Source of the DNA: Batkoa obscura
Taxonomy: Eukaryota
Assembly: GCA_030770535.1 (NCBI GenBank)
Contig: JASVEC010000027.1
Coordinates: 310,001 to 374,000 of the forward strand
Length of the DNA: 64,000 bases
Reading direction: 5' to 3'
Below the pieces are notes generated by a model. That model had not been told where the DNA came from. It made no database searches and was given only the letters and a program-made list of their open reading frames with translations. A program made the position numbers and the translations under genes. Positions 20,554-23,065 of the stretch are shown here, piece after piece. Position 1 is the stretch's first letter. Every line of letters begins with the position of its first letter.

Positions 20554-23065
20554 TTACCAATTTAATTCATACATAGTAGCCACCTTATTCCCAGAACCTG
20601 TGGTAAATATACTACCATCCAGTGACAAATCACTTGCTAATAAAGTACCATTTTCAATATACTACAAAAAGAAATTATTAATTAAATCAATTAACTTTAA
20701 CTTAATTTTATATTATAATGAATTTACTTCAAACCTATTTTCAATTTTATGAAAATCACCTAAATTCCAACCCATAATACCACCATCTTTAGAAGTAGAA
20801 ACAAATTTATTTCTTTCTTCATTAAGTTTTAAAGAAATTACACAATTACTATGAACTTCAATTAATTCCCCAAATTGGGCTATTTCAAGTGGCGCTTTTG
20901 ATATATCATCTATTGGTAATATTGATATTTTACTATTTTCTAATCTAAATAAATAAATAAATAATAAAATTAATTAATTGTTCTATTATTAATATTATAA
21001 TATTTTAAATACAAATTAAATTTTACCCAACAATAATAACCCCATGTTTATCATGGAATCGTGGATCAAAATAACCAATCCCTAAAGAAAACACAGGCGA
21101 TGTCATATTAATAATACTTAATGGATTCCCACTTTCCATATCCCATAATCTTACTGTTTTATCCAATCCACCTAGAATTTATTATTTCAATATTAATTAT
21201 GTAATTCTATTATTTGAATTTCATCTTACCTGTAGCTATTTTCCTACCTATAGGAGATATATCGACACAAGTAATGCCATTTGTATGACCAGTAAATACT
21301 CTATATAAAACTATTAATTGGAATTCATTTATCAATTAGAGCCTCTTACTTATAGGTTTTCTGTGTAACAATATCCCAAGATAATAGATCTCCATTAGAA
21401 CAACATGCAAATACAAGGTTTGAATTAGGACAAAAAGTAACTGCATAGACAGCTTCAGAATCGACTTCAAAAGAAGCTAAACTAGTTGGACGACTCTATT
21501 TTTTATTATTAAATTTAAATTTAAATTTCTATATCTAGTTCTATTAACTTACCATAGTTAAATCCCAAACAATAATAGTTGAAGATTCTCCACCAACAGC
21601 TAAATACTTTCCATTAGGTGCTATTTTCATAGCTCGTATATAATTATCCTAATAAAACAATTTCAAAAATTCAATTAATTTATTATTTCAATTTAATTAA
21701 ATAATTATTCAATATTCAATATTCAATATTCGATATTATTTACCATAGATTCTAATACCATAATTGGATTAATTAAATCTTTTTTACGATCCCATATTTT
21801 AACTGTACCCTAATAATATTATAAATAAATTAATATTAATATTAAATTATATTATATTATTATTAATAATAGTACCAATCCACCTGTATAAAGTATACTA
21901 GCATCTTTAGAAGATGAAATAACAGAGCAAACCACTTCACCATGAGGTAAAGCGGATATTAAATTAATATGTAGATTATTAGGTAACAATTGTTTATTTT
22001 TTTCTAATTCCATTGAATTCCTATAAAGATATCAGTATTAAACTAAAAACTAATAAAATAGATTTTACTTGAAATAATTTTTTGATCTATCATATTGTAT
22101 TCCATCACTTTCACTATCATTTGCAAAACTTAAATTTGAATTTACTATTTCTTCTTTATAAATCAATTTTTCTTTATCATATCCTTTTTTGCACTTTTTA
22201 AGTTATTAATTAATAAAATAAAATAGGTTAGATAAATTATTTACTTTTAAAATAGTTTCATCTTCATTTAATAAAACTACATTACTTTCATTTAATCGAA
22301 TTGTATTAGCTTCATTACGTCTTAATAAATTAGTATCGATATCAGTGGAAGCTAGAAATAGTTATCATAATACTTAATAAAAGTCTTGATAACTAAAATA
22401 AATAAACTTACATTGTCTACTATAATCCTGTGGCAATCTCTTTTTTTTATTTTGTGATAAATAATTATTGTATTTTTTATGTTCTTGTATTATAGTGTCA
22501 TTAAAACTTGTTTCCAATAAGTCAAAATTTGAACTTTTAAAATCTTCATCTCTAGACTAAATATTATTAATTTCTTTTAATAAAAATAAAATGCTATTTT
22601 TTGTTTAAAATTACTTGTTCCATCATCAATTTAAATTTTTCAATTTTATCTGCTAACTCAAATTTTTTCTATATTAAAGCCCATTAAAATCCTTTTAAAT
22701 GGAATAAATTCATTATCTTTGAACTTACCTCATTATCTAAAATCCCAAACATTTCATTAACTAATTTCAAGGCATAACTATTGATTCTCTTCTGGGTTTC
22801 TAAACTTTTATTTAATGTATGGGATAATTCATAGTACTAAAGGTAAGTTCATATTAAATATCATAATATTAATTATTATATATATGTTTTTATTACTTAC
22901 CAATGTATATTTTCCCGCCAACTCTTCCGAGTCATTGATTTGTTCTTGATTCCTCAATGCAAGTTGATGTAACTGTTCAATTTCACCTTTCATAAATTGA
23001 TATCTTTTACTTAAATTGGTTGAATTTGAGGTGTCATTATAGTAAAAATGGTTGTTGTTATTCAT
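20554..23065 (-). CDS. Groucho/TLE-family transcriptional corepressor (Q-like domain plus WD40 propeller), multi-exon
   Basis: Spliced translation: [134 protein letters not shown]. Confidence 0.88.

Follow-up and report, generated by a model that had tools for sequence, protein, structure and literature searches.

A spliced gene in a 64-kb stretch of the Batkoa obscura genome (the window) encodes a protein that, judged by its sequence, is an orthologue of animal Groucho/TLE, and most of its alignable introns occupy sites that are also used by animal genes. The gene was probably inherited vertically from the animal-fungal ancestor, a reading that we favor over an old transfer of DNA from an animal. 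Vertical descent would mean that most other fungi have lost the gene and that it evolved quickly along the stem lineage of the entomophthoralean clade. The strong and new part of this result is a Groucho-family orthologue in an unexpected kingdom, accompanied by gene-structure evidence.

The gene lies at positions 20554..23065 on the reverse strand, as do all of its features, and comprises 14 exons with a 1698-nt coding sequence for 565 amino acids; its 13 introns are all GT-AG and 48–95 nt long. The model was reproduced by a custom spliced aligner supplied with the "WD40 repeat-like protein" of Neoconidiobolus thromboides FSU 785 (NCBI: KAI9298326.1; P0001), which is identical to the 565-aa product at 533/565 positions. 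Exon 1 (22901..23065, aa 1–55) encodes the first half of a TLE_N-like helical domain and is separated by intron 1 (22837..22900, phase 0, between KYTL and YYEL) from the 108-nt exon 2 (22729..22836, aa 56–91), which ends at intron 2 (22669..22728, phase 0, after ILDNE). Exons 3–6 and introns 3–6 (22021..22668) span the end of the helical domain and then a linker that cannot be aligned, is predicted with low confidence, and contains a basic KKKR cluster at aa 147–150. The region encoding the WD40 β-propeller (20557..21971, about aa 252–565) includes the pocket residues R310, E326, F437, E460, and L538. It is interrupted by intron 7 (21810..21875, phase 0, between TGGL and G), intron 8 (21649..21743, phase 0, between ESM and DNY), intron 9 (21496..21552, phase 0, between WDLTM and S), intron 10 (21301..21349, phase 2, in K386 of TYK), intron 11 (21172..21229, phase 1, after T409), intron 12 (20945..21026, phase 2, in G458), and intron 13 (20662..20727, phase 0, between RFE and Y). 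The last exon (20554..20661) encodes 35 residues and the stop codon and, like exon 2, is present in both the gene model and the contigs.

Direct joints for 11 of the 13 introns, including introns 1 and 8, were found in contigs from runs guessed to be RNA; none of these runs is on record as RNA, and it is the joints themselves that show spliced forms. The remaining two introns were recovered indirectly, one through a net 51-nt skip and one through record coordinates across a masked repeat (X8 record 11), so that all 13 are backed by putative-RNA contigs. Contigs of the DNA run X1 contained none of the spliced joints. An earlier note, made from the letters of this DNA, had described the two N-terminal phase-0 introns, the 108-nt exon between them, phase-0 and phase-2 introns at ESM/DNYIR and TYK, and a 35-residue last exon, and had called for transcript support at the junctions; every one of these fungal features holds, and the junctions have support from the putative-RNA contigs.

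Animal intron sites were numbered on TLE3 (P0102). One metagenome scan with N-terminal patterns returned 80 animal groucho loci among 295 confirmed, of which 29 were examined as genomic (L051–L080 without L064 for the N-domain, some being near-duplicates); the propeller is covered by five of these 29. Fungal intron 1 coincides with site 63, a phase-0 intron in 21 of 26 covering animal loci, and intron 2 with site 99, likewise phase 0 and present in 13 of 20; three vertebrate predictions run into GT directly after site 99. The richest comparison comes from L067, a locus we call sponge-like because, by eye, the closest row to its propeller in Copley's alignment is that of Amphimedon. Its canonical propeller introns fall at 504, 561, 587, 647, 674 (phase 2), and 735, and four of them (504, 561, and 735 in phase 0 and 674 in phase 2) equal fungal introns 7, 9, 13, and 12 in position and phase. 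Site 735 is occupied in L067 as one of four loci that reach it. For intron 10, a phase-2 intron within R415 is indicated by the human TLE6 splice variant c.1245-2A>G (PMC8266952, in the text available), and R415 aligns to TLE3 R610 and to fungal K386, again in phase 2. For intron 11, no animal counterpart was seen.

In total, nine fungal introns lie in alignable sequence, and seven of them agree with animal sites in position and phase (seven of ten once intron 3, at the edge of the domain, is included). With L067 alone, the chance of five shared sites between nine and nine introns is 1e-9 by the hypergeometric distribution for 1125 slots and 1e-4 for 110 usable slots, values that rule out coincidence. 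Intron 8 would have its counterpart at site 527 (between DCL and NRDNYIR), which we take to be occupied in animals. It was absent from all five genomic loci with WD40 coverage, the alignment carries a 1–2 residue indel there, and no TLE6 splice variant at this site was found in the literature; two TLE6 papers describe only N-terminal splice sites in their accessible portions (PMC12771770, PMC11919057). The earlier claim of about five shared sites is thus borne out for 63, 99, 610, and 735, while 527 is a presumed match, and three sites beyond that list (504, 561, and 674) are added by L067. The boundaries were mapped through metagenome animal loci and TLE6, in place of the human TLE1 annotation originally envisaged. 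Because sites are shared in the same position and phase, convergence and retroposition are excluded, as the note had argued, and descent at the DNA level is shown with its route left unspecified; the choice between inheritance and DNA transfer is not settled by the introns, and vertical descent is favored by other evidence.

An animal intron at site 78 (11/25 loci) divides the 108-nt exon in many animals, whereas several arthropod-like loci leave it uninterrupted, as does the fungus. In all four arthropod-like loci with WD40 coverage, the propeller is free of introns. A separate arthropod-like contig (L064) carries two groucho paralogues, head to tail-inverted, at 2077–3054 (+) and 5306–6310 (−), also with intron-free propellers.

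Two word-filtered searches gave at least four fungal-type proteins among the matches listed, from N. thromboides, Entomophthora muscae, and two relatives, and none among those matches from Conidiobolus coronatus, Basidiobolus, Mucoromycota, or chytrids. Both named carriers sit in the insect-associated crown, a clade adjoining and including obligate insect pathogens. WD40-region loci made up none of 61 confirmed stretches in prokaryote genomes and none of 65 in viral contigs. A chytrid-group record comes from Merenyi 2023 (PMC10406608), in which row mcl_18135 of Supplementary Data 6a lists six proteins, five with a Groucho N-domain and four with WD40. Its entries occur only in the Chytridiomycota column (4/8 species by the table's averaging, with neither species nor sequences given), and the row passes without comment in the available main text. 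These proteins possibly come from Neocallimastigomycota, which account for four of the eight species in that column. The supplements of PMC11105155 contain no TLE_N or Tup_N terms.

As far as its available text goes, Copley 2016 (PMC4943189) places Groucho in animals, ichthyosporeans, Corallochytrium, Trimastix, and Naegleria, assigns fungi only Tup, and makes a prima facie case from Naegleria and Trimastix that both families date to the eukaryotic ancestor; the accessible supplement has no row for Conidiobolus, Basidiobolus, or Entomophthorales. The view that Groucho preceded the animal-fungal split, which vertical descent would imply, was already argued in that study and is less new than the earlier note implied. 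In NCBI, the E. muscae protein already carries the automatic name transducin-like enhancer. Our literature search found no fungal Groucho, including in Conidiobolus and Entomophthorales (subscription journals and bioRxiv supplements lay beyond its reach), and a fungal Groucho orthologue with gene-structure evidence appears to be unreported.

Vertical descent is favored because of the mosaic of shared introns, the intron-free propellers of arthropod-like loci, a set of non-animal alignment columns, the flat identity to animals, and the chytrid-group row mcl_18135. The shared introns combine sponge-like (504, 561, 674, and 735), pan-animal (63 and 99), and vertebrate (610) sites, and the whole set was found in no animal gene examined. 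Four columns are nearly fixed across 36 animal rows (W632 in 32, S or C642 in 31, M676 in 35, and A724 in 33), and the animal residue occurs in none of the four fungal rows and, by eye in Copley's alignment, in none of the 13–14 non-animal Groucho rows. At three columns the fungi look animal-like (S625, V742, and the S of STGK), and Tup1 has the same states there. The fungal rows are about equidistant from all animals, at 37–45% identity. We also count for a vertical origin the GC3 of the gene, which at 0.16 is in line with its neighbors (0.15–0.27).

It is possible, although we consider it doubtful, that the ancestor of Neoconidiobolaceae and Entomophthoraceae instead acquired an intron-bearing groucho as DNA from an animal host (an arthropod or a nematode), with fast divergence and amelioration afterwards. 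The narrow spread among the matches listed, in a host-associated clade, is consistent with such a transfer, as are the undivided 108-nt exon of arthropod-like loci and the lack of a fungal Groucho in the available parts of Copley 2016 (PMC4943189). So is the very high share of animal introns: published inferences put intron density at 8.7 per kb after gain at the animal root and at 4.9–5.5 per kb in LECA, which makes 7/9 sharing high for vertical descent. Also counting against inheritance, 58 of 179 animal-invariant columns are altered in every one of the four fungal rows, and at some of these even Trimastix retains the animal residue. Given such fast change on a long fungal stem (>3 changes per column), the non-animal states could be reversals.

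Other observations speak against a transfer. All four arthropod-like loci lack any propeller intron, no animal-specific residue was seen among the columns examined, identity is not biased toward arthropods, and Groucho-domain proteins are listed for a second fungal lineage in the accessible table of PMC10406608. Our trees held animals and fungi only, with no outgroup, and the AU-test tree and the identity comparison omitted three flatworm rows. Fungal placement was unstable, being a basal polytomy in one free tree and on the Styela branch in the other, the latter likely a long-branch effect. The earlier note had held that nesting inside arthropods would indicate transfer from a host. Neither free tree unites the fungal clade with arthropods, yet none of the groupings put to AU tests, with Lepidoptera (p 0.38), with an arthropod-like group (0.44), and with the sponge-like row (0.50), was rejected, so an arthropod donor is not refuted by topology.

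It is very improbable that the protein is instead a WD40 paralogue, Tup1 or another, made Groucho-like by convergence and with introns gained in parallel at proto-splice sites. Against solved structures, the best match is TLE1 (E 7e-60, in a single unbroken stretch), far ahead of Tup1 (E 7e-22), and the propeller is closest to TLE rather than to Tup1 or other WD40 proteins. In a protein search, P0001 was followed by E. muscae P0002 and two further proteins at 351–373 bits, with animal TLEs at no more than 226 bits among the matches listed; in a representative-protein search, the best 150 were mostly many-repeat WD40 proteins, and the relevant ones were P0001, P0002, and P0004. Structure prediction gives long helices at the N-terminus, a linker of low confidence (111–248), and a confident propeller, and Foldseek ranks 1–6 are all TLE1, the input alignment of the model having included animal TLEs.

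The pocket gives the same answer. The pair F661/E677 is diagnostic of Groucho, with Y/L in Tup (Copley 2016, PMC4943189, in the text available); it is present as F437 and E460 and kept in all four fungal rows, from which the Tup-type pair is absent. Mutation of R534 or L743 in TLE1 is described as abolishing partner binding, and both residues are identical in the four rows. At L702, all four have Ile. Seven further positions that we take to belong to the pocket (V486, C488, Y532, E550, Y578, L636, and K718) are identical throughout. Together with the intron coincidence, improbable even for 110 usable slots, the TLE1 rank and the F/E pair refute a convergent paralogue as far as this can be tested.

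What speaks for a paralogue lies at the N-terminus, where the E. muscae protein matches Pfam TLE_N with E 9e-5 and 23.3 bits, below the gathering score of 32 bits, and where TLE_N is absent from the best 25 families listed for P0001. An N-domain under the Pfam cutoff would be hidden from domain surveys. TLE_N-type homology is nevertheless supported by our own animal N-domain HMM (26.4 bits, reached by 0/500 shuffles), by profile–profile comparison (hhalign, E 2e-5), and by the two introns at the same sites, over both of which the alignment to TLE_N is gap-free. The N-terminus of P0003 scored non-significantly with the HMM (matched by eight shuffles) and showed a faint Tup_N match (E 0.2), the best for that domain in any of the fungal Groucho-like proteins. 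A four-copy complex prediction of the N-domain scored 0.19, and a structure atlas search with this domain alone gave only scores below 0.8. In its available text, Copley 2016 (PMC4943189) accepts the Naegleria protein as Groucho without TLE_N.

Animal contamination or misassembly, conceivable insofar as host DNA can occur in insect-pathogen assemblies, is ruled out by fungal genes on both flanks, presence of the locus in 12 runs from 7 studies, the E. muscae orthologue, and an identity to animal Grouchos of ~40%, against a median of 83% among the animal proteins themselves, with short AT-rich introns like those of neighboring genes adding to the case. Read off their translations, the neighbors are fungal-type and include a Zn2Cys6 factor, MAP2K, CaMK-like kinases, PCF11, and DHFR. 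The window also holds at least 12 copies of a MITE-like dispersed repeat of ~110 bp with terminal inverted repeats (2364–2471, 2854–2961, 12803–12909, 17797–17905, 23425–23532, 27565–27671, 34789–34895, 38586–38692, 42675–42784, 48545–48609, 56305–56411, and 57679–57787), one of them preceding the start codon of the Groucho-like gene by ~360 bp. Further features are three clustered CaMK-like kinase genes (9500–19800, DNA 74–80% alike), an inverted repeat pair (32152–33291, 290 bp, 85%) adjoining transposase-like reading frames (33672–34654), F-box/LRR-like gene duplicates (40376–45840, 75–81% alike), and two calmodulin-like EF-hand genes side by side (52763–54118), followed by a cytochrome P450 (54735–56066).

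Compared with animal Groucho/TLE1–4 (PF03920 TLE_N plus WD40; Protein DataBank 1gxr, 2ce8, 2ce9, and 4om2), the fungal protein has the same helical N-domain, disordered linker with a basic cluster, and C-terminal propeller, along with the pocket residues and seven intron sites. It differs in its modest propeller identity (37–45%), insertions next to two motifs (behind FSLG and ahead of H-x-x-CV), a linker of ~140 aa, an N-domain under the Pfam cutoff, and the lack of introns at sites 41 and 78. With unicellular Grouchos (Ichthyosporea, Corallochytrium, Trimastix, and Naegleria; PMC4943189, as far as available), it shares the non-animal states at 632, 642, 676, and 724 and, with most of them, the F/E pair, whereas K504 and C526-L527 are kept in those proteins and lost in the fungal ones. 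Fungal Tup1/Tup11/12 (PF08581 Tup_N plus WD40; Protein DataBank 1erj) likewise join a helical N-domain to a WD40 propeller in an analogous co-repressor role, but the match is much weaker, the Y/L pair is missing, and Tup_N is only faintly detected in one homologue.

By analogy, the fungal Groucho likely acts as a transcriptional co-repressor. If TLE1 is a guide, DNA-bound transcription factors would dock through short WRPW/EH1-type motifs onto the top face of the propeller, oligomerization would fall to the N-terminal helices, and the KKKR cluster would direct nuclear import; chromatin would then be repressed as with Groucho, by homology. The longer reading frames of the window contain no WRPW/EH1 motifs.

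Together, these findings break the accepted split between Groucho in animals and their unicellular kin and Tup1 in fungi, through a spliced Groucho with an intact pocket in culturable fungi. Its introns provide alignment-independent evidence on the age of Groucho, for which the earlier evidence was two divergent excavate proteins. Were the transfer true, insect-killing fungi would have captured a whole intron-bearing developmental co-repressor gene as DNA from an early animal host and preserved its pocket over hundreds of millions of years, which would be a rare case of a regulatory gene passing from an animal to a fungus. WRPW/EH1-type repression can now be tested in a fungus alongside Tup1, as can the origin of the gene, be it a relic of the opisthokont ancestor or a transfer from a host.
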